Source: a virus (lineage: Duplodnaviria; Caudoviricetes). From it: a DNA stretch of 24,128 bases. Numbering within the stretch: position 1 is the first letter of the stretch; every line of letters begins with the position of its first letter. The stretch is from the IMG/VR virus record IMGVR_UViG_3300048577_000580, positions 1-24,128 of that record; one strand, 5' to 3'. Positions 1 to 19,975 of the stretch are shown here, one piece after another. A program made the translations under genes and the position numbers. The notes beneath the pieces are model-generated. The model was not told the origin of the DNA. It did no database searches and saw only the letters and a list, made by a program, of their open reading frames with translations.

Positions 1-174
1 GTCGGTGACCCAGCGGCCGGCCTTCGCACCGCTCTTCGTGGTGAGGTGGATCTTCGCGTCGGACCACTGGCTGACGGTCAGGTTTTCCCGCGGGGCGATG
101 GCATTCGCGGCGATGCGCTGAAGCAACGCACGCACGTCGGCATAGCCCTCGCGTGTGACCAGCGTTGATTGCAT
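1..174 (-). CDS. terL: Terminase large subunit (lambda GpA family), N-terminal part, truncated by window edge
   Basis: Hand translation from ATG at 174: MQSTLVTREGYADVRALLQRIAANAIAPRENLTVSQWSDAKIHLTTKSGAKAGRWVTD. LTVSQW.D...GRW.T is the typical GpA N-terminal pattern, and the gene lies downstream of terS. Confidence 0.85.
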   Translation of the reverse strand, partial: MQSTLVTREGYADVRALLQRIAANAIAPRENLTVSQWSDAKIHLTTKSGAKAGRWVTD

Positions 175-181
175 CAGGCGC

Positions 182-400
182 TCACTTGTTCTTCGCTTTT
201 GCGAGCGCGTGACTGCATCGAGGCGGCAGCATCCCCCGCGCGCGCATCAGGGCTTGCGGAGAAGGCGCCTTAGGCATGCCATCTATGTCAAGGCATTCGC
301 CAACCAACTCATCCAGTGCGCCGGACACAACAGCGACTGCCGCCTTCAGAACACTTACATCGGCATCCGCCGACGACATCGGCGCTTCACCGTTCTTCAT
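182..400 (-). CDS. Small hypothetical phage protein
   Basis: ORF track 182..403. Likely ATG at 400 (TGATG overlap with the radical SAM stop) or at 379. Fills the gap before terL. Confidence 0.65.
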   Translation of the reverse strand: MKNGEAPMSSADADVSVLKAAVAVVSGALDELVGECLDIDGMPKAPSPQALMRARGMLPPRCSHALAKAKNK

Positions 401-1791
401 CAAGAGATCCGTCCGGGCTGGGGTGGCGGGGCAGCCTCAGCCGCCCCGCTTTCTGCTAGGTGCCGCGGTACTTCGGCGAGTACGGGGCGCTGCGCTTGCG
501 GACCATCTGGCCCTTGCGCGTGCTGTACTTGCCGCTGCTCTTCTGTCGAGCAGAGTGGTTCTCGGCCATCGCACTTCCTTTCCAGTGGGTGGTTGAGGAA
601 GGTCACGTCGGAATGCCCCACTTCCCATTCCGCGAACCCGTCTTTCGACACCGCCATGAGGGGCACGCCGTCAAGGTCGGCGGCGTGCGCGTCGTCGTAC
701 AGCACGCGGGCGAAGCAGGCGTGCCGGAACCGCGTCGGGAATTCGTCGAAGCGCCAGATGAAGGCGTTCGCCTCTGCCTGGCTGTGCGCCCGCGTGTCCT
801 CGCCGGCATTGCGAACGCTGCGCCCGAAGCCGTTCAGGAACTCTTTCCAGATGGCGCGCGGGCGCTTCAGGCCGATATCGGCCCAGGCGTTGAACTCCGC
901 CAGGTCGATGGCGAGCGGCTGGCCACCGGCCGCCAGATCGCAGTCGCGCACCAGCGCATCGACCGTTGGCGACCACGGGTAGCCGAGGCGGTCGAACCAC
1001 TCGTCCCAGAAGCCCAGCTTGTTCGAGACGCCGCCGGAGAACAGGTTGAAGCCCATGGCCTCGACGCGGTCGAGCGCGGCGGCGTAGTCCTTCGCGTCGG
1101 GCGCGACCTTCTTCGACGCGTAGTCGATCAGATCGGAATGCTTGGCCTTCGCCTTGTCGGACATGGCGCTGATCTGCCAGCGCGACAGATGCATGGCCTG
1201 GTGCCACACGTGCGTGACGCCCCAGCCTGCCAGCTGCTCGAAGCAGGCGTCGACGTCGGCCCACCACTTGGGCACGAAGGGGTTGAGCCCGATCACCACC
1301 ATGTGGCCGGCTTCGCGCAGCCGGCGGATGAACTGCATGCGCTGCGCATGCGGCGGCGCGCCCGGCTCATGCCGCTGGCGCACCATTTCGTCGTCGGTGG
1401 TCAGCGACACATACACCATCGTCGGCGCCTGATCGATGATGCGCTGTTCCTCTTCCGGCACGCCGCCGCGCGTCTGGTACGCGAAGCGCACGCCCAGCGG
1501 CGAAAGCGCCTCGACGATGCAGCGGTGCACCGCCGCGTTGCTCTTCGCGCAGGGGTCGCTGTCGTTGCTCATCAGGATCGGGTGACCCATCTGCAGCAGT
1601 TCGAACTCCATGGCGGTGGAACCGGTGTCGAACCACTTCAGCACGCGCGCGATGTCGTTCGGCTCCGACACGCGATCGGGCTTGTTCAGGTTCGCGAAGC
1701 AGTACGCGCAGCCGTGCGTGCACCAGTTGCCGCCGAAGTGCAGCAGTGCTGGGGAGATCAGGTATTCGCCGGTGTAGATGCGAAGGCTCAT
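400..1791 (-). CDS. Radical SAM enzyme, spore-photoproduct-lyase (SPL)-like family
   Basis: True start MSLRIY at 1791 (ATGA overlap with the MTase stop). CxxxCxxC motif CTHGCAYC, SNDSDP, and VSLTTDD...EPGAPP...R...L..AG..V...NPFVP resemble SPL/Rv2578c-type radical SAM proteins. Confidence 0.85.
   Translation of the reverse strand: MSLRIYTGEYLISPALLHFGGNWCTHGCAYCFANLNKPDRVSEPNDIARVLKWFDTGSTAMEFELLQMGHPILMSNDSDPCAKSNAAVHRCIVEALSPLGVRFAYQTRGGVPEEEQRIIDQAPTMVYVSLTTDDEMVRQRHEPGAPPHAQRMQFIRRLREAGHMVVIGLNPFVPKWWADVDACFEQLAGWGVTHVWHQAMHLSRWQISAMSDKAKAKHSDLIDYASKKVAPDAKDYAAALDRVEAMGFNLFSGGVSNKLGFWDEWFDRLGYPWSPTVDALVRDCDLAAGGQPLAIDLAEFNAWADIGLKRPRAIWKEFLNGFGRSVRNAGEDTRAHSQAEANAFIWRFDEFPTRFRHACFARVLYDDAHAADLDGVPLMAVSKDGFAEWEVGHSDVTFLNHPLERKCDGREPLCSTEEQRQVQHAQGPDGPQAQRPVLAEVPRHLAESGAAEAAPPPQPGRIS
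426..449 (-). terminator. GC-rich hairpin just after the peptide gene (terminator, processing or stability element)
   Basis: Minus strand GCGGGGCGGC-TGAG-GCTGCCCCGC: 10-bp stem with one G-U pair, 6 nt after the peptide stop. No U-tract on the minus strand. Confidence 0.5.
456..569 (-). CDS. 37-aa Lys/Arg/Ser/Tyr-rich peptide nested out of frame in the radical SAM 3' end
   Basis: MAENHSARQKSSGKYSTRKGQMVRKRSAPYSPKYRGT*. AAGGA RBS 6 nt upstream, codons 9-37 all end in G/C, hairpin follows the stop. Confidence 0.75.
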   Translation of the reverse strand: MAENHSARQKSSGKYSTRKGQMVRKRSAPYSPKYRGT

Positions 1792-2930
1792 GTGCAGGGC
1801 TCCAATGGCAGGCCGGCGGTGACGCCGCGCAGGCGGTCGTTCTGCAGTGCCGCGTTGTCGGGATTCAGTTCGCAGCCGATGAACTGGCGGCCGAGCCGCA
1901 GGGCCACGCGTCCGGTTGTTCCAGTGCCAAAGAACGGATCGAAGATGATGTCGCCCGGGCGGCTGCCGGCGAGGACGCACGGCTCGACCAGCGCTTCGGG
2001 GAATGTGGCGAAGTGCGCGCCGCTGTAGGCCTGCGTCGGAATCGTCCAGACGCTGCGTCGATTGCGGCGAGATACATCCCACTCGCTTTCGGCGCGGTCC
2101 GGCCGATGCGTGCCGACGGCCTGCCCGGGTATAGCCTGCTCGCGCTTGCTGTCCTCGCGCTTGAAGGAATCGCGACGGCTTCTCGGTTTCGGAGTGGCGT
2201 CGTAGCCGTGACCGAATCCCACACCGGTGGAGCCGCGTCCCACCGCCTTCATGTTGCCGTTCGTCTTTGCTCCGCCGTTGGCGCGAGTGCTGCCCGTTTG
2301 ATTGGCTACATCCTGGGCAAGCCGCGCCAGTGTGTTCGGGCTGGCCGGCTCCAGAATGGCGTCCTGATCGAAGTAGTACTTCTCCGATCTAGTCATGAGA
2401 AACAGGTATTCATGCGACTTCGTGCAGCGGTCACGCACCGATTCCGGCATCGGATTCGGCTTCGACCAGATGATGTCCTGACGCAGATACCAGCCGGCGT
2501 CTTGCAGCGCGAACGCGAGGCGCCAGGGCTGGCCGATCAGGTCTTTGGGCTTGAGGCCATGCGGGACTGTCTTCCCACTTCTGTTTCTCGCTTGTTCAGC
2601 ACGATGCCCGCCGCCGGAATACTTCACGGCTCTCCCGGCAAAACCGGTGTTGAGCCCGCTTCTGCCGTTTGCTGCGTAGCTGTCGCCCATATTCAGCCAG
2701 AGGGTTCCGTCGTCCGTCAGCAGCTGACGGCACAGGTCGAACACCTCGACGAGCTGGGCAAGAAATTCGGGCAGCGTCGGCTCCAGCCCGATTTGTCCGT
2801 CGACGCCGTAGTCGCGCAGGCCCCAGTACGGCGGACTGGTGACGATGCACTGCACGCGCACGCCGTCGGCGATCATGCGGCGCATCGTGTCGCGGCAGTC
2901 ACCGAAGTGGCATTGATTCAGCCAGCCCAT
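1788..2930 (-). CDS. DNA methyltransferase, beta-class N4-cytosine/N6-adenine
   Basis: Catalytic VTSPPY near the N-terminus, SAM-binding DPFFGTGTT near the C-terminus, IIWSKPNPMPES and HFATFP motifs. Confidence 0.93.
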   Translation of the reverse strand: MGWLNQCHFGDCRDTMRRMIADGVRVQCIVTSPPYWGLRDYGVDGQIGLEPTLPEFLAQLVEVFDLCRQLLTDDGTLWLNMGDSYAANGRSGLNTGFAGRAVKYSGGGHRAEQARNRSGKTVPHGLKPKDLIGQPWRLAFALQDAGWYLRQDIIWSKPNPMPESVRDRCTKSHEYLFLMTRSEKYYFDQDAILEPASPNTLARLAQDVANQTGSTRANGGAKTNGNMKAVGRGSTGVGFGHGYDATPKPRSRRDSFKREDSKREQAIPGQAVGTHRPDRAESEWDVSRRNRRSVWTIPTQAYSGAHFATFPEALVEPCVLAGSRPGDIIFDPFFGTGTTGRVALRLGRQFIGCELNPDNAALQNDRLRGVTAGLPLEPCT

Positions 2931-2931
2931 G

Positions 2932-3624
2932 TCAGATGCCCCTCATCAGCACGTCGGCGTCCGACATGTCGTGTTCGTCCTTGAAGGCCTGCAGGCGGTC
3001 GTACTGGGCGCGGTTCAGGCTGATCATGACCGGATAGACGGTCGGCTTCTTCGGCTGCGGCTTGGCAGCGGTGGCCGCGCCGGTAGTGGCGGGGGCCGGG
3101 GCGCTGCCTTCGGCGTCGCGCTGGTGAGCGGCGTTCGCGTCGACGGTGCGTTCGTCTTCGTCCAGCGCGCTCAGGGCGTCGTCGAAGTCGAGGCCCAAGC
3201 GATCGAAGTCGAAGTCGTCCAGTTCGCTCTGTTCGCTCAGTGCATCCAGTTCGCCGCGCAGGATTTCGGCATCCCAGTCGCCGCCTTCGGCAAGCCGGTT
3301 GTCCGCGATGACGTAGGCGCGGAACTGGGATTCGGTCCAGCCGGTGACGTCGAGCACCGGCACGGTGCCGGCCGGAAAGGGTTCGGCGCCTTGCTCCCGG
3401 CCCGGTGCCGGGTAGAGCAGCCCGCCGCGGGCGTAGATCGATTCGACTGCCTTCAGGCTGCCGTGCCCCTTGGCGATGGTGCCGTCGCGCACGACGATGG
3501 CGCCGACGAAGCCCAGCGCTTCGAAGGTGCGGGCCAGCTGCTCGATCTGTTCCGGCGGGTGGCGCTTGGCGTTGCCGGCGTAGGGGCGCAGATCAACCAC
3601 CGGGCGCAGTTCAGGCGCGTTCAT
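2932..3624 (-). CDS. ParB/Srx N-terminal domain protein (phage packaging-region type)
   Basis: LRPYAGNAKRHP..QIEQLA...GF...IVV....IAKGHG and RAYVIADNRLAE...WD motifs. ATGA-coupled to terS. Confidence 0.88.
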   Translation of the reverse strand: MNAPELRPVVDLRPYAGNAKRHPPEQIEQLARTFEALGFVGAIVVRDGTIAKGHGSLKAVESIYARGGLLYPAPGREQGAEPFPAGTVPVLDVTGWTESQFRAYVIADNRLAEGGDWDAEILRGELDALSEQSELDDFDFDRLGLDFDDALSALDEDERTVDANAAHQRDAEGSAPAPATTGAATAAKPQPKKPTVYPVMISLNRAQYDRLQAFKDEHDMSDADVLMRGI

Positions 3625-4217
3625 TGCGGGGTTCCCTTCTTCGGTTTGAGGGTGTCGGAGGTTTCGCGCAGCACGCCTTCGACGAATTCGTCGATCAGGG
3701 CCTTGCAGGCGCTCGGCTCGCTGACCGGTGCGACGAGCGGGGCCAGCGTGGTGCCCATGCCTTCGAGCCGGCGGCGCAGCGCGGTGACCAGGTCAGCGGC
3801 GGCGGCTTCGATGTCGGCCACGGGGGCGAGCTTGCCGACAAGCCGTTCGTACTCGACCTTGGCGGTCATGGCCTTGTACTTCTCGTTGATGGCCTTGGCC
3901 TTCTGGAAGCCGTGGTCATTCGAGGCCGGCACCACTGCGCCGCGGTCGTCGTCGTCGACGCGGTCGGTGGCGGGGTTGCCCGTATCGCCCGTGACGACGT
4001 CGTGCCCACGTGCAGCGGCGTGCCGGGCCGCCACGCCGCTGCGGGACGGGTCGCGGGTGCTGTCGATCAGTGCAACCGATTCGGCGACCTTCACGGCCTT
4101 GCCGTCGTCGGTGAGCACCAGGCGGCCAGCCTTGCGCAGTTCGGTGATGTAGGAGGGCCGGACGCCGATATGGCGGGCGAATTCGGCGAACCCCATTTCC
4201 GGCTTCGCTTCGCTCAT
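3621..4217 (-). CDS. terS: Terminase small subunit (Nu1-like)
   Basis: N-terminal wHTH (FAEFARHIGVRPSYITELRKAGRL), then coiled coil with AKVEYERLVGKLAPVADI. Located upstream of GpA-type terL. Confidence 0.78.
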   Translation of the reverse strand: MSEAKPEMGFAEFARHIGVRPSYITELRKAGRLVLTDDGKAVKVAESVALIDSTRDPSRSGVAARHAAARGHDVVTGDTGNPATDRVDDDDRGAVVPASNDHGFQKAKAINEKYKAMTAKVEYERLVGKLAPVADIEAAAADLVTALRRRLEGMGTTLAPLVAPVSEPSACKALIDEFVEGVLRETSDTLKPKKGTPQ

Positions 4218-4523: not shown

Positions 4524-6947
4524 TCAGAATCCCGCACGGCTCAGTCCTTGCTTGTAGTCGTTGAGGGCGTTGCGGAAGGCCTCGATGCAGTCGGAGAAGA
4601 ACACCTGCTGACTGCTGCCCGGCGGCTCCTCGTCGACACCTGGCGGGAAGATGAAGGTGCTCTGCTTCGTGGTTGTGCCGACCATGTGCCGCTTGCGCTT
4701 GTGGCCGCACCGGTGCTTCTTCACCAGCGCATCGATGAGCTTGTTGAGCGGCGCGCCACGGCCGATGCCGTTGCGATGGCACCAGGCGACATAGAGCTGA
4801 TAGACGTCTTCCGACAGCGCCGGCATGAGGCCGACGCCGCCGATCTCGCCGGCCGTCCAGTGCATCAGGAAGCGGCTGGTCGAGTCGCGTGACAGGTCGA
4901 TCAGTTCGGCCTTCGCCTCGGTCATCGGCGGCAGCGTATGGGCGGCGAAATTGCCCATGGGCAGGTTCAGCAGGTGGTCATGCAGCGCGGCAATGCCGCC
5001 CGCTTGTATCTCGGCCTTCACGGCGGAATAGAAGTCGGGGCCCAGCTTCACCGGCGTCCAGATGACCGCGTGCCGCCGGTCGTCCTCTTCGAGCACGACG
5101 GGCATGCGTTCGTTGGAGAGGAAAACCATGTTGACGTGGTTCGCCTCCCAGTACGCCTGCATGTTCTTCGGGTTGATGCGGATCTGGTCGTTCGTGATGA
5201 ACGACTTCAGCTTGTTCTTGATGTGAAACATTTCGGACCGCGCGACCACTTCGTCGGCGATCAGGAAGAGCTTGCGCGAGGCCCAGTCGTTGAACTTGTC
5301 CTCAATGGCCGACTGGTCGATCACCCAGCCATATCGCCCGTAGATGGCCATCACGGCTTCGAAGAACATGTTCTTGCCGGTGCCCTGCGGGCCGTGGATG
5401 ACGACCGTGGTCTTCATCTTCGCGCCGGGGTGCTGGATCGGGTAGGCGATCCAGCGCAGCACCCATTGGTATAGCTCTTCGGCCTTCGGATCGGCCTGGC
5501 ACATGTACTGCAGCAGATCGAGCAGGTTTTCGCACTTGCCGGCCTTGGGCACGGTCGGCCAGCCGGACCACAGGTTGCATTTGATGGCCGGGTCCTCTTC
5601 GCCCGGATCGAATCCGACCTCTTCAACGCGCACGATCTTGCGCGACGGATGCTCTTGCCATCGCCGCGAGAACTCGCGCCGCGTGCAGAGATCGCGCATG
5701 TCAGACAGCGTGACCAGGATGTGTTCCTGATGATCGAACACCGATCCGCCGTGGCCGTAGACGAGCGAGAATCGATCGAGCAGCGTTTCGACGCTCTCGA
5801 CCGGCCGCAGATCGGCGCTCGCCGCCCCACCCCCCCGAGTGTCCGAGTCCCGCGCGGCGGCGGGCGCGGTCCAGTTGAACCGCCTGATCGCGTCCTCGAC
5901 CTGCGAACGCACCGTGGTGAGGCCGCAGGCGTGGTGCAGGTCGTTGAAGTCGGTGATCTTCGTGCCGCGCTCGCAGAACTGCTCCCAGCGCTGCATGTCA
6001 TCGGGGAATTCGGGCTTGATCCACTTGCCTTCGACGGTCAGCGCAGCGGTCGCGGCGTCGCGGCAGCCGGTGTTCTCTCGACGGTGCGGCTTGCCGCAGG
6101 CCGGGCACGGGTCATCCAGCCGGCCGGTCTTGACCGGCGCCTTGCAGCCCTGGCACTTGCCGAATGCGTCGTCGTCCGCACAGATCAGGATGTTGATGCC
6201 GGGGTAGCGCTTGCGCAGCACGCGCGCCACCGGAAGCAGGTTGCCGGCGTCGAAGGTCACAGCCACCGGCAGGCCGGTCGCTTCGTGCAGACTGGCGGCC
6301 GTCGCGTAGCCTTCAGCGAGGAGCACGCACCAGGTCGGCACGCCGCCCAGAAGGTGGAACTTCCCGATCTTGTCCAGGCCGGCGGGCCAGTATTCCTTGT
6401 CGCGCTCCGTCCGGGCGATGCGTTTGGCGTGCTTGGCACGGGTAAGGATAAACTGCAGACCCCACACGCGCCCGCTCACGTCCATCATCGGCACGGCCAT
6501 CGCGCCCGAAGGCGTGAATTTCACGCCGTGCGCCTTGACGCCCTTGCGCTCCAGGTAGTCGCACTCGCCCGTGGTGGCGAGCTTGCGCCACACGCGGTCC
6601 GCCTGCTCCGCCGCCCGGTTCGCCTGCGCCCGGCGTTCCTGCTCCGCGCGCTTCTGGTCGTCCTTCAGCCGCTGGCGCAGCGCGGCCTGCTGCTCATCGG
6701 TGAGCGCGTTGCGCTCGAGCGTGACCTTCTGCGCTCCCTTGTCGTTGCCACGCCAGACCCCGAACGACCCGACGACGACCAGGTCGCCGCCGTCCAGCAT
6801 CAGTTCGTGCAGGACGTACCAGCCCCGCTTCTCGCGCTCCCCTTCGACCTTGCAGCGGACCGGCTTCCCCGTGACCTTCAGGTACTCGACGATCAGCCCC
6901 GCGGCGCGGAGCTGTGACAGCACGGAATCGTGATTCGACACCCCCAT
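4524..6947 (-). CDS. DNA primase-helicase (Toprim + DUF5906/SF3 helicase; P4 alpha/TraC-like)
   Basis: Toprim AEGYATA...FDAGNL...ICADDD and TDFNDL; Walker A GPQGTGKN; Walker B LFLIADE. Likely ATG at 6947. Confidence 0.92.
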   Translation of the reverse strand: MGVSNHDSVLSQLRAAGLIVEYLKVTGKPVRCKVEGEREKRGWYVLHELMLDGGDLVVVGSFGVWRGNDKGAQKVTLERNALTDEQQAALRQRLKDDQKRAEQERRAQANRAAEQADRVWRKLATTGECDYLERKGVKAHGVKFTPSGAMAVPMMDVSGRVWGLQFILTRAKHAKRIARTERDKEYWPAGLDKIGKFHLLGGVPTWCVLLAEGYATAASLHEATGLPVAVTFDAGNLLPVARVLRKRYPGINILICADDDAFGKCQGCKAPVKTGRLDDPCPACGKPHRRENTGCRDAATAALTVEGKWIKPEFPDDMQRWEQFCERGTKITDFNDLHHACGLTTVRSQVEDAIRRFNWTAPAAARDSDTRGGGAASADLRPVESVETLLDRFSLVYGHGGSVFDHQEHILVTLSDMRDLCTRREFSRRWQEHPSRKIVRVEEVGFDPGEEDPAIKCNLWSGWPTVPKAGKCENLLDLLQYMCQADPKAEELYQWVLRWIAYPIQHPGAKMKTTVVIHGPQGTGKNMFFEAVMAIYGRYGWVIDQSAIEDKFNDWASRKLFLIADEVVARSEMFHIKNKLKSFITNDQIRINPKNMQAYWEANHVNMVFLSNERMPVVLEEDDRRHAVIWTPVKLGPDFYSAVKAEIQAGGIAALHDHLLNLPMGNFAAHTLPPMTEAKAELIDLSRDSTSRFLMHWTAGEIGGVGLMPALSEDVYQLYVAWCHRNGIGRGAPLNKLIDALVKKHRCGHKRKRHMVGTTTKQSTFIFPPGVDEEPPGSSQQVFFSDCIEAFRNALNDYKQGLSRAGF

Positions 6948-6984
6948 TTCAGTAACTTTCACCCCCACTGACTACAGGGCTTGA

Positions 6985-17916: not shown

Positions 17917-18263
17917 GCAACGCATTCACCGATTTTGTCAGCTGGTCCAGCACGCGGCCGCCTGAGCCGGTCATGGGAAGCACGGCCGCCCGGATGATCA
18001 GAGCCGGAACGGGCGTCACCCAGATGCTGCTGGATGTAATCGATGCGCAACAGCCGATTACCACGGTCAGCCTGTGTGAGCAGACGGGGCTGGAAAGCAA
18101 GGTCATTTGGGGCCTGCTGAAGAACCACCTGAAGTCCGGCCGGCTGCGGCATGACGGTACGCAAGGATGGACAGCCGGCATAAGCGCTAGTGAGCGCGCC
18201 GCCGCAGCGCTGCTCCGCCGCGCTGGATGGACCGTGCGCCCACCTGAAGGACGGCAAGAATGA
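17913..18263 (+). CDS. Hypothetical wHTH-like protein
   Basis: 116 aa, QPITTVSLCEQTGLESKVIWGLLK; ATGA overlaps. Confidence 0.68.
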   Translation: MSNAFTDFVSWSSTRPPEPVMGSTAARMIRAGTGVTQMLLDVIDAQQPITTVSLCEQTGLESKVIWGLLKNHLKSGRLRHDGTQGWTAGISASERAAAALLRRAGWTVRPPEGRQE

Positions 18264-19975
18264 ACCCCCAGCACCGCCTGCTGTTCGATGACGAACTGAT
18301 CGTGGATCTGTTCGCCGGTGGCGGCGGCCTGAGCACCGCCTGCGAACAGGCGCTCGGCCGCTCGCCCGACATCGCGATCAACCACAACGACGACGCGCTG
18401 AGCATGCACCGCGCGAACCATCCGCAGACCCGTCATTTCGTCGCGGACGTGTTCGAGGTGTGCCCCCGTGGCGCCACGCAGGGCCGCCCGGTCGGTTACC
18501 TGCACCTCTCGCCCGACTGCACGCACCACAGCCAGGCTGCCGGCGGACAGCCGCGTGACGAACGCATCCGCGCGCTCACATGGATCGGCCGGCGCTGGGC
18601 CGGTCAGGTGCGCCCTCGCATCATCACGCTGGAGAACGTGCGGCAGATTCTGAAGTGGGGGCCGTTGGTCGCGAAGCGCGACAAGGTCACCGGCCGCGTG
18701 CTGAAGCGCTGCGGCACCGTCGCGGAGCCCGGCGAGCACGTCGCGCGGCGCGACCAGTTTCTGGTGCCGGACCCGAAGCGCGAGGGCATCACATGGCGCG
18801 CCTTCGTGCGCAGCCTGCAGGCCATGGGCTACGTGGTCGAGTGGCGCATCCTGTGCGCGGCCGATTACGGCGCCGGCACCACGCGCGAGCGGCTGTTCAT
18901 GGTCGCCCGCTGCGACGGCAAGCCCATCGTCTGGCCCGAGCCGACGCACTTCAAGAAGCCGGCGCGCGGGCAGAAACGCTGGGTGTCGGCGGCAGAGTGC
19001 ATCGACTGGTCGATACCGTGCCCGAGCATCTTCGAGCGCGCCAAGCCGCTCGCGCCGGCCACGCTGCGGCGCATCGCCCGCGGCATACAGCGCTTCGTGC
19101 TGGACAGTGTCGATCCGTTCATCGTGAACATGGCGCACGGCGGGAAGCTGGAAAGCGTGACCGACCCGGTCAGCACCATCGCAACCGAGAAGGGCGGCTG
19201 CCGCGCAGTGGTGACGCCCTCGCTGGTCCAGGTCGCCCACGGCGAGGGCAAGCCGGGCGGCGTGCAGCGCTGGGGCAGCGGCGTGCGTGACGCGCTTGAC
19301 CCGCTGGGCACCGCTACCGCATCCGGCGGGGGCGGGTATGCCCTCATGGCTGCCAGCCTGGTGCAGACCGGCTACGGCGAACGCGAGGGCCAGGCGCCGC
19401 GCAGCCTCGACATCACCGAACCGCTGGGCACCATCGTCGGCACCGGCAAGCACGCTGCCGCCTGCGCCTACCTGATGCAGGCCAACGGCGGATTCAACGA
19501 AACGCCCGGGCACGACCCGCGCCGGCCGGTCAGCACGATCACCAACAGCGGCAGCCAGCAGCAGGCGGTCGCCGCCCACCTCGCCCAGCTGAGCCCCGAG
19601 CACGAAGCCGGCGCGCTGCGTGTGGCCGCGTTCCTGATGCAGTACTACAGCGAAGGCGGACAGTGGGGCGGCATGCGCGACCCCATGAACACCGTCACCA
19701 CGCGCGACCGCCTCGCGCTGGTCACCGTGGTGCTGAAGGGCACGCCCTACCTGATCGTCGATATCGGCCTGCGCATGCTCACGCCGCGCGAGCTTTACCG
19801 CGCCCAGGGCTTCCCGCCCGACTACCAGATCGAGGTCGGCCACGACGGCCGCCGATTCCCCAAATCCGCGCAGGTCCGCATGGTCGGCAACAGCGTCAGC
19901 CCGCACCCGGCTGCCGCCCTCATCGCCGCCAACTGCGGCGACCTGCGCATCGAACCGTTGAGGAGAACAGCATGA
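18260..19975 (+). CDS. dcm: Phage DNA (cytosine-5) methyltransferase
   Basis: VDLFAGGGG (motif I), SPDC (IV), LENV (VI), RERLF (VIII), RML.PREL.RAQGFP and GNSV (IX-X). Confidence 0.95.
   Translation: MNPQHRLLFDDELIVDLFAGGGGLSTACEQALGRSPDIAINHNDDALSMHRANHPQTRHFVADVFEVCPRGATQGRPVGYLHLSPDCTHHSQAAGGQPRDERIRALTWIGRRWAGQVRPRIITLENVRQILKWGPLVAKRDKVTGRVLKRCGTVAEPGEHVARRDQFLVPDPKREGITWRAFVRSLQAMGYVVEWRILCAADYGAGTTRERLFMVARCDGKPIVWPEPTHFKKPARGQKRWVSAAECIDWSIPCPSIFERAKPLAPATLRRIARGIQRFVLDSVDPFIVNMAHGGKLESVTDPVSTIATEKGGCRAVVTPSLVQVAHGEGKPGGVQRWGSGVRDALDPLGTATASGGGGYALMAASLVQTGYGEREGQAPRSLDITEPLGTIVGTGKHAAACAYLMQANGGFNETPGHDPRRPVSTITNSGSQQQAVAAHLAQLSPEHEAGALRVAAFLMQYYSEGGQWGGMRDPMNTVTTRDRLALVTVVLKGTPYLIVDIGLRMLTPRELYRAQGFPPDYQIEVGHDGRRFPKSAQVRMVGNSVSPHPAAALIAANCGDLRIEPLRRTA

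Follow-up and report, generated by a model that had tools for sequence, protein, structure and literature searches.

The whole 24,128-base stretch of DNA considered here, hereafter the window, corresponds to a provirus record of IMG/VR that is complete (IMGVR_UViG_3300048577_000580; Caudoviricetes; 66% G+C). A short open reading frame (ORF) on its minus strand, at 569-456, lies within the 3′-end of a gene that encodes a radical S-adenosylmethionine (radical SAM, RS) protein. This ORF, which would encode a peptide of 37 amino acids (aa), is almost certainly a real gene, and its translation is predicted to be driven by its own ribosome-binding site. Comparison with related phages shows coding-type selection on the peptide frame that is absent from the overlapping tail of the RS frame, and in the viral RS family a small ORF, or a tagged gene, that begins with Met-Ala follows the RS gene at a frequency far above chance. 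On the basis of this gene linkage, the peptide is, on balance, probably a dedicated partner or substrate of the RS protein encoded just upstream. The features of the window that bear directly on the peptide gene are as follows.

574-1791, minus strand: conserved RS core, 406 aa (PF04055, E 1.4e-11), with a CTHGCAYC cluster motif near the N-terminus; ATG at 1791
400-573, minus strand: non-conserved 57-codon extension of the RS frame, covering the peptide gene and missing from 37 of 40 RS homologues; TGA at 402-400
574-583, minus strand: Shine-Dalgarno (SD)-like sequence GGAAAGGAAG, which also codes for the E-R-K that ends the conserved RS core
456-569, minus strand: 37-codon peptide gene, ATG 569-567 and TAG 458-456, in the +1 frame relative to RS
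426-449, minus strand: hairpin 3′ of the peptide gene, beginning 7 nucleotides (nt) past the stop codon

Evidence for a selected peptide gene

The ORF and its translation, MAENHSARQKSSGKYSTRKGQMVRKRSAPYSPKYRGT, are exactly as described when the gene was originally predicted from the sequence. Its ATG is the first ATG, GTG or TTG after an in-frame stop located 13 codons upstream, and the AGGA core of GGAAAGGAAG (583-574), then listed as an AAGGA ribosome-binding site, ends 6 nt before this ATG. The 29 consecutive G/C-ending codons noted for the frame are codons 9 to 37, and a scan for such runs recovers them as 453-545, which is 31 triplets with the stop codon and the next triplet included. The window has a total of 26 distinct runs of at least 25 G/C-ending codons, and the others that were placed fall in the frames of long ORFs with a high G+C content at third codon positions (GC3). 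GC3 in the RS frame is 0.90-1.00 up to ~630 and falls to 0.50-0.60 between 600 and 420, while the peptide frame has values of 0.85-1.00 between 570 and 460, and high GC3 changes frame at ~600. A direct count agrees with the 10 Lys or Arg residues, among 37, and the single acidic residue given in the original prediction, and the peptide has an S-P-K-Y segment and no Cys. The Y-S-x-[RK] motif does occur twice in the window peptide, as was pointed out, and is conserved only in part, with Y15 and P29-Y30 alone invariant across five aligned relatives. No family in Pfam, PHROG or NCBIfam matches the peptide. An AlphaFold model of the peptide alone (predicted local distance difference test score, pLDDT, 69; predicted template modeling score, pTM, 0.30) has a helix at residues 5-11 and a hairpin at residues 15-24, around an invariant K19-G20, and is too weak to be taken as more than a hint.

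A search with phmmer of all short ORFs from 88 related loci, designated by L numbers, gave eight matches to the peptide, with E-values from 1e-21 to 2e-7, and the next best match had an E-value of 1.1. The eight peptide-bearing loci are L001 and L016-L019, with 90-98% RS identity, and L020-L022, with 53-54% RS identity. A search of 1.84 billion protein representatives gave two matches, of which one, P0041 (32 aa), is a true relative; P0042, a 97-aa protein of repetitive sequence, was discarded as a relative of the peptide. Scanning metagenomes for relatives gave three loci, one of them (L091) new and useful. The peptide is encoded once per genome in all four of four related records, two of which are 100% complete.

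Compared with L001, the rates of non-synonymous (dN) and synonymous (dS) substitution in the peptide frame are 0.112 and 0.363, respectively (dN/dS 0.31), whereas reading these bases in the RS frame gives a dN of 0.162 and a dS of 0.131 (dN/dS 1.2). Conservation thus follows the peptide frame and not the RS frame and, together with the GC3 switch and the eight matching loci, bears out the original view that the peptide frame is the selected one. Two Lys-to-Arg changes relative to L001 involve three nucleotide substitutions each, and the differences from L020 number 14, 13 and 29 at codon positions 1, 2 and 3, respectively. The RS frame of L020 reaches a stop right where the peptide gene starts. 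All three antisense frames are interrupted by stop codons in at least one relative, and only the peptide frame is open in all relatives. An antisense ORF on the plus strand, at 460-2028, shares third positions with the peptide frame and was considered and rejected, as it contains stop codons in L001 and L022. The SD sequence and the ATG are retained in all relatives, the SD of the aligned relatives being GGAAAGGAGG in L020 and GTGGAGAG in L022, 6-8 nt before the ATG. These conservation, selection and antisense-frame tests place the peptide ORF beyond chance.

Contigs from four DNA sequencing runs of four studies are identical over 456-569, with no insertion or deletion (indel), and have four differences elsewhere in 350-760, which are too few to test selection across that region. 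Contigs from RNA libraries, in two runs of two studies, span the peptide gene and the 3′-end of the RS gene (461-705 and 444-626); the contig ends lie near the hairpin, and contigs of this kind cannot show transcription, strand or transcript ends. The hairpin reported after the peptide stop codon is present, with 10 pairs including one G-U (stem 449-440/435-426, loop of 4), and its stem is retained with wobble changes in L001, L016, L018 and L019. It is not statistically unusual for DNA so rich in G+C, the 76-nt region being no more stable than its shuffled versions (z = -0.95; 35 of 200 shuffles as good). An intrinsic terminator at this site is ruled out by that value together with the lack of a U tract and a terminator scan that called none.

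Origin of the overlap

RS homologues are mostly of similar size, 37 of 40 being 387-432 aa in length. The long homologues are P0001 (460 aa), P0003 (450 aa) and P0033 (759 aa), the last of which is intein-bearing, with an intein-like insertion of ~350 residues within the CX3CX2C cluster motif. Apart from the window, P0001, P0003 and P0020, every sequence in a 19-row RS alignment stops at ..ER[RK] or shortly beyond it, which is the point at which the peptide gene starts, and the codons for ..ER[RK].. are also the ribosome-binding site of the peptide. In L020-L022, the peptide gene begins between 7 nt before and 3 nt after the RS stop codon, and GGAAAGGAGGTGGTAACCATGG in L020 aligns to GGAAAGGAAGTGCGATGG in the window. 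A spacer containing the stop codon was shortened and the RS stop lost in the window lineage, so that the RS frame now runs on for 57 codons across the peptide gene. The overlapped RS tail is drifting neutrally. The original description of a nested gene therefore holds for the gene and not for the nesting, which is an accident of one lineage rather than a conserved design, as in relatives at 53-54% RS identity the two genes barely overlap. Rz1 of phage lambda is nested within Rz, in the +1 frame. The two cases are alike in having a small +1-frame gene inside a larger one and differ in that, here, the overlapped part of the outer gene is a recent neutral tail generated by stop-codon loss.

Small Met-Ala ORFs downstream of the RS gene

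Of 89 sources, namely the window and 88 loci, all but one yielded the RS ORF (88 of 89), L091 being added later, and the 79 RS sequences above the family threshold were reduced to 55 clusters at 90% identity. To be scored as linked, a small ORF had to share the strand of the RS gene, begin with ATG-GCN, be at least 20 aa in length and start in the interval from -40 to +60 nt relative to the RS stop; in the case of nested MAEN peptides, the type found in the window, a start as far as 157 nt before the RS stop was accepted. By this rule, the equivalents that had been anticipated 3′ of RS homologues are present in 36 of the 55 dereplicated clusters, compared with 271 of 2750 random positions and 27 of 201 positions after other long frames (10-13%; binomial p = 2e-23 and 8e-19, respectively). 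Sorted by what follows the RS stop, the clusters are as follows.

MAEN-type peptide: 4 clusters
ORF with an N-terminus that fits the MAxSGGxW profile: 12 clusters
other Met-Ala ORF, mostly Gly-rich and basic: 20 clusters
none by the rule: 19 clusters

Small ORFs that are rich in Gly but do not begin with Met-Ala are present in several clusters of the last group (L003, L006, L037/L047, L058, L065 and L078). In L006, at 3673-4156, two ORFs after the RS gene share a different N-terminus, MPGSGKGI[ST]TS, which suggests that other variants of the N-terminal sequence, or tag, exist.

In a quick maximum-likelihood tree of the RS sequences, the window falls within a clade of six rows, with a support of 100, in which five rows have MAEN peptides and the sixth is L091. 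The L091 peptide is of the MASS..SGG kind, MASSRVGSGRASSGG..., and the six-row clade nests in a 19-row clade that also holds six rows of the MASxGG type, with peptides of 34-42 aa. Given the Met-Ala ORF counts and this placement in the RS tree, the small peptides look like fast-evolving positional counterparts.

N-terminal tags in distant phages

At loci where the RS identity is 24-35%, several genes in a row start with MA[AS]SGG[HTI]W. Genes with a MAxSGGxW tag are present in 3, 2, 4, 4 and 2 copies in five phage records, and nearly all are beside the RS gene. The third positions of the tag codons vary (entropy 1.6-1.95 bits) and Ser is encoded by both AGY and TCN codons. Because the third positions vary freely and both Ser codon families are used, selection must act on the tag as protein, and a role for the tag as a nucleotide-level translational enhancer was rejected on the same grounds. 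Tagged ADP-ribosyltransferases are encoded in three separate phages (PF03496; E 1.4e-14, 3e-9 and 9e-12) and a tagged NUDIX protein is also present.

L136:14486-15139, minus strand (L012/L136): tagged ADP-ribosyltransferase, 217 aa
L135:7605-9860, minus strand: tagged ADP-ribosyltransferase, 751 aa, also Alt-like (phrog_802, E 4e-8)
L134:3267-5090: tagged ADP-ribosyltransferase, 607 aa
L135:9862-11388, minus strand (L068/L135): tagged NUDIX protein, E 1e-12

Immediately downstream of the tagged genes are those for terminase, portal and head morphogenesis. The three phages with a tagged ADP-ribosyltransferase are mutually unrelated, and the tagged gene adjoins the RS gene and packaging genes. 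L136, an Oculatella provirus, has a fourth tagged gene (L136:2628-3170, minus strand; 180 aa) ~12 kb from the RS gene and directly upstream of a 396-aa ORF, in an apparent tail-gene region.

When a degenerate DNA pattern for MA..GGHW was searched for in viral contigs, 42 stretches were obtained, with the following distribution.

10 stretches, from 7 contigs: RS gene within the fetched stretch
22 stretches: motif at the start of major head proteins of ~337-362 aa (phrog_212), no RS gene within 4 kb
2 stretches: motif on 58-aa basic ORFs, no RS gene nearby
8 stretches: probable chance matches

The loci with tag-starting head proteins (L094, L099, L101-L106, L108-L110, L115-L119, L122, L124-L126, L132 and L133) belong to ~42-kb phages, and the phrog_212 assignment was tested on L101 and L094. 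The 58-aa basic ORFs that start with the tag motif are in L095 and L107 (position 4001), with no RS gene within 4 kb. The N-terminus of T7 gp10 is MASMTGG. In L134, an RS phage, the major head protein (L134:13862-14932; phrog_3990) does not begin with the tag. With this motif, the tagged proteins may be imitating an N-terminus that is related to the capsid.

The radical SAM enzyme

The AlphaFold model of the RS protein has a pLDDT of 95, and a Foldseek search with this model gave generic radical SAM core matches only. The top match is a pyruvate formate-lyase activating enzyme with bound peptide (3cb8_A; E 2.9e-5; template modeling (TM) score 0.59 on the target), and the others include SkfB (rank 3), viperin, TYW1, spore photoproduct lyase (SPL), LipA, NifB and SuiB (ranks 23-24). 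The window RS resembles the pyruvate formate-lyase activating enzyme in its fold and in the N-terminal location of the cluster motif, and its presumed partners have a Gly near, or adjacent to, an aromatic residue. It differs in having only 14% identity and a C-terminal extra of ~150 residues that the match does not cover, and the 37-aa peptide, unlike a glycyl-radical substrate, has neither an RVxG[FYW] motif nor a glycyl-radical domain.

The original prediction saw in the gene pair an echo of SPL and the small acid-soluble spore proteins (SASPs) of spores. As with SPL and the alpha/beta-type SASPs, an RS protein, the closest homologue of which is labelled 'DNA repair photolyase' by the Joint Genome Institute (JGI), adjoins a small basic protein. 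The similarity ends there: the RS protein is outside the SPL family by both sequence and fold, and the peptide has no family match. A profile search with the RS protein against PDB sequences gave nothing below an E-value of 0.03 and no SPL match at E up to 1; in NCBIfam, there are matches far below threshold to families of the Rv2578c and PA0069 types (20-40 bits, against cut-offs of 360-700) and to 'mobile pair B'; and the Foldseek TM scores for SPL, 0.34-0.37 on the query, are similar to those for other RS enzymes. The NCBIfam model for the 'intein-containing Rv2578c family' is among those that match the window RS weakly. The neighbours of the RS protein in the ESM Atlas are unnamed clusters, mostly viral. 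In 50,697 GenBank phage records there was no RS homologue at E 1e-10, with one weak partial match at E 3e-4, and a literature search of titles and abstract openings found no paper on this RS family or on a peptide-RS module.

Gene organization of the window

The small and large terminase subunit genes enclose five genes, those for the ParB-like protein, the methyltransferase, the RS protein, the peptide and a 73-aa ORF. The remaining features of the window are as follows.

4524-6968, minus strand: primase
3621-4217, minus strand: small terminase subunit (phrog_57, E 2e-25)
2932-3624, minus strand: ParB-like nuclease/partition-domain protein (phrog_620, E 1.2e-27, and related families)
1788-2930, minus strand: N6/N4 DNA methyltransferase (PF01555, E 1.3e-50), the stop codon of which overlaps the RS ATG
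182-403, minus strand: 73-codon ORF between the peptide and terminase genes
1-174, minus strand: first part of the gene for a GpA-type large terminase subunit, which continues past the window edge and whose full-length L016 orthologue matches PF05876 and PF20454
far end of the window: integrase

A second DNA methyltransferase is encoded at 18260-19975 on the plus strand. The 73-codon ORF has no match in Pfam, PHROG or NCBIfam and is missing from the closest relatives, L001 and L016-L019, in which the RS stop abuts the terminase ATG; the window variant that contains it was found in contigs of several metagenome runs. DNA of the phage in the window is present in sequencing runs of 14 studies, and the labels of the runs examined are aquifer, wetland, sludge and 'metagenome'.

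Proposed role and alternative explanations

The proposal that best accommodates these comparisons is that the RS enzyme would bind and chemically modify the peptide, for which the conserved G-K-Y...K-G core, a beta-hairpin in the low-confidence model, can be guessed to be the recognition or target site. Because the peptide is strongly basic and is encoded between two terminase genes, it might then act at DNA packaging or within the virion, probably on DNA. The counterpart in distant phages would be the N-terminal tag on the ADP-ribosyltransferases and the NUDIX hydrolase, proteins that look like effectors and for which packaging in the virion and injection are predicted. Taken further, the viral RS family would provide the enzyme of an undescribed phage protein-tagging system, in which a short N-terminal module (stand-alone in the window, and fused to Alt-like ADP-ribosyltransferases or NUDIX proteins elsewhere) is modified, and the modification loads these molecules into the capsid together with the DNA, to be injected with it into the next host. 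This wider scheme is put forward very tentatively, with the odds against it. The RiPP-like substrate (RiPP: a peptide made by the ribosome and modified after translation) of the original prediction is retained as regards an RS substrate, which is the option most in line with the comparative data, and is weakened by the absence from the RS protein of SPASM and auxiliary-cluster features.

Several observations weigh against a peptide-modifying RS enzyme and against the connection of the peptide to the tags. Most peptide-modifying RS enzymes have SPASM or auxiliary-cluster features. In Pfam, the window RS matches PF04055 only, with no SPASM/twitch or PqqD-like domain, and across 39 RS sequences there are only three invariant Cys residues, C24, C28 and C31. 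The fold matches to the pyruvate formate-lyase activating enzyme, SkfB, viperin, TYW1 and SPL are all generic, with TM scores of 0.27-0.40 on the query, and ParB-like and methyltransferase neighbours would equally suit an RS enzyme that acts on DNA. A Met-Ala ORF is lacking, by the rule used, in 19 of the 55 RS clusters. With a profile hidden Markov model (HMM) of the MAEN peptides, not one MASxGG peptide is recovered at E up to 1, an HMM of the MASxGG tags lists no MAEN peptide at E up to 5, and hhalign aligns the two groups at P = 0.02, in the register SGKYSTRKGQ ~ G.RF..R.GES. Because neither HMM reaches the other group and the hhalign probability is 0.02, homology of the MAEN-type peptides to the MAxSGGxW tags is only suggestive and is not claimed. 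MASSGGHW begins major head proteins of ~358 aa in 22 of the 42 pattern matches, and none of five complete genomes of this head-protein kind (with terminal repeats and rated 100% complete) has an RS gene, which was detected in three of three positive controls. As head proteins carry the motif in genomes without an RS gene, the tag motif can function without the RS enzyme.

The peptide, as a real gene product, could instead act alone, as a protamine-like counter-ion or DNA binder at packaging that is possibly packed with the genome. The RS enzyme would then act elsewhere, for example on DNA or a nucleotide, and the two genes would be neighbours through operon organization and translational coupling. 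The excess of Lys and Arg (10 of 37 residues, with one acidic), the S-P-K-Y segment and the location between the terminase genes, near the ParB-like and DNA methyltransferase genes, all suit a DNA binder, as do the JGI label on the closest RS homologue, the weak NCBIfam matches of the RS protein to SplB-like families of unknown function and the presence of the tag motif on capsid proteins without an RS enzyme. Baculovirus P6.9, adenovirus mu and the protamines are DNA-condensing basic peptides of viruses that are small, Arg/Lys-rich with Ser or Tyr, and late. The window peptide is similarly small and basic, but these are peptides of eukaryotic viruses, no homology is claimed, and we know of no comparable DNA-condensing peptide in a phage. 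The position at which the small or tagged gene begins, however, tracks the RS stop across 24-98% RS identity, and does so more tightly than any other neighbour, the ParB, methyltransferase and terminase genes being variable in position. Several counterparts, such as MKMQTNYSGGSSFAEDVGGSD in L037, are not basic, and the proteins to which the tags are fused are enzymes and not DNA binders. A solitary DNA binder is regarded as doubtful. The peptide and its tagged counterparts might, alternatively, be capsid-targeting signals, with an N-terminal module that loads the procapsid as in phage T4 and with the RS enzyme as an accessory or as cargo. T4 Alt is packaged in the virion, and a single tag on diverse cargo (Alt-like ADP-ribosyltransferases in three phages, and NUDIX) encoded upstream of terminase, portal and head-morphogenesis genes would be in keeping with such targeting, as would the presence of the first 8 residues of the tag at the start of a family of major head proteins and the MASMTGG of T7 gp10. 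The internal proteins of T4 are described as diverse, with a capsid targeting sequence as their only common feature (PMC3012670). The relatives with an RS gene are similar in having a short N-terminal sequence on unrelated proteins, including ADP-ribosyltransferases, beside head and packaging genes. T4, in contrast, needs no RS enzyme, packaging is a prediction in the phages described here, and the window peptide is stand-alone, without an SGGxW motif and without cargo, its ties to the tags being position and the hhalign value. The major head protein of L134 is not tag-initiated and capsid targeting offers no role for a radical enzyme, and this explanation is considered unlikely.

A classical RiPP system, in which the peptide would be a precursor whose modification and cleavage yield a released molecule with an antibacterial or signalling role, is brought to mind by the small ORF adjacent to the RS gene and by the presence of SkfB and SuiB among the fold matches. 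As in the SkfB/SkfA, SuiB/SuiA and YydG/YydF pairs, a small ORF beside an RS gene is co-inherited with it, the peptide being retained down to 53% RS identity. Unlike in those pairs, the window RS has no SPASM/twitch auxiliary-cluster Cys and no recognised peptide-binding domain, such as a RiPP recognition element (RRE), and the peptide has no Cys and no leader/core signature. In the window, no protease, exporter or immunity gene is beside the pair, which is part of a late packaging operon, and in relatives the module is fused to whole enzymes of 200-750 aa, all of which makes a released RiPP quite improbable. There is, finally, the explanation that the frame is not a separate gene. It would be either the true C-terminus of the RS protein, to which a +1 frameshift gives access or which results from a faulty assembly, or a nucleic-acid element that is conserved close to the terminase gene. 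The +1 relationship of the two frames, the hairpin that follows and the proximity of packaging genes could be read in this way. The explanation is largely refuted and hardly credible: in L020-L022, the RS gene has its own stop codon, located between 3 nt upstream and 7 nt downstream of the peptide ATG, and the SD sequence is retained; an in-frame stop is present 13 codons upstream of the ATG; the sequence is identical, without an indel, in the contigs of four DNA runs from four studies; third-position substitutions dominate; and basic residues survive multi-nucleotide changes. A frameshift fusion with the RS protein was rejected, as the RS stop of the relatives adjoins the peptide ATG.

Implications

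The peptide gene escapes ordinary annotation, and because only one true relative is present among 1.84 billion protein representatives, it points to a class of small phage genes that is largely invisible in databases. With the RS gene, it forms an unstudied gene pair located beside the DNA-packaging genes of many uncultured phages. If the RS enzyme truly acts on the peptide and on the tagged effectors, the radical chemistry that it performs on phage proteins would be of a new kind, and there could also be a new route by which enzymes are delivered alongside phage DNA.

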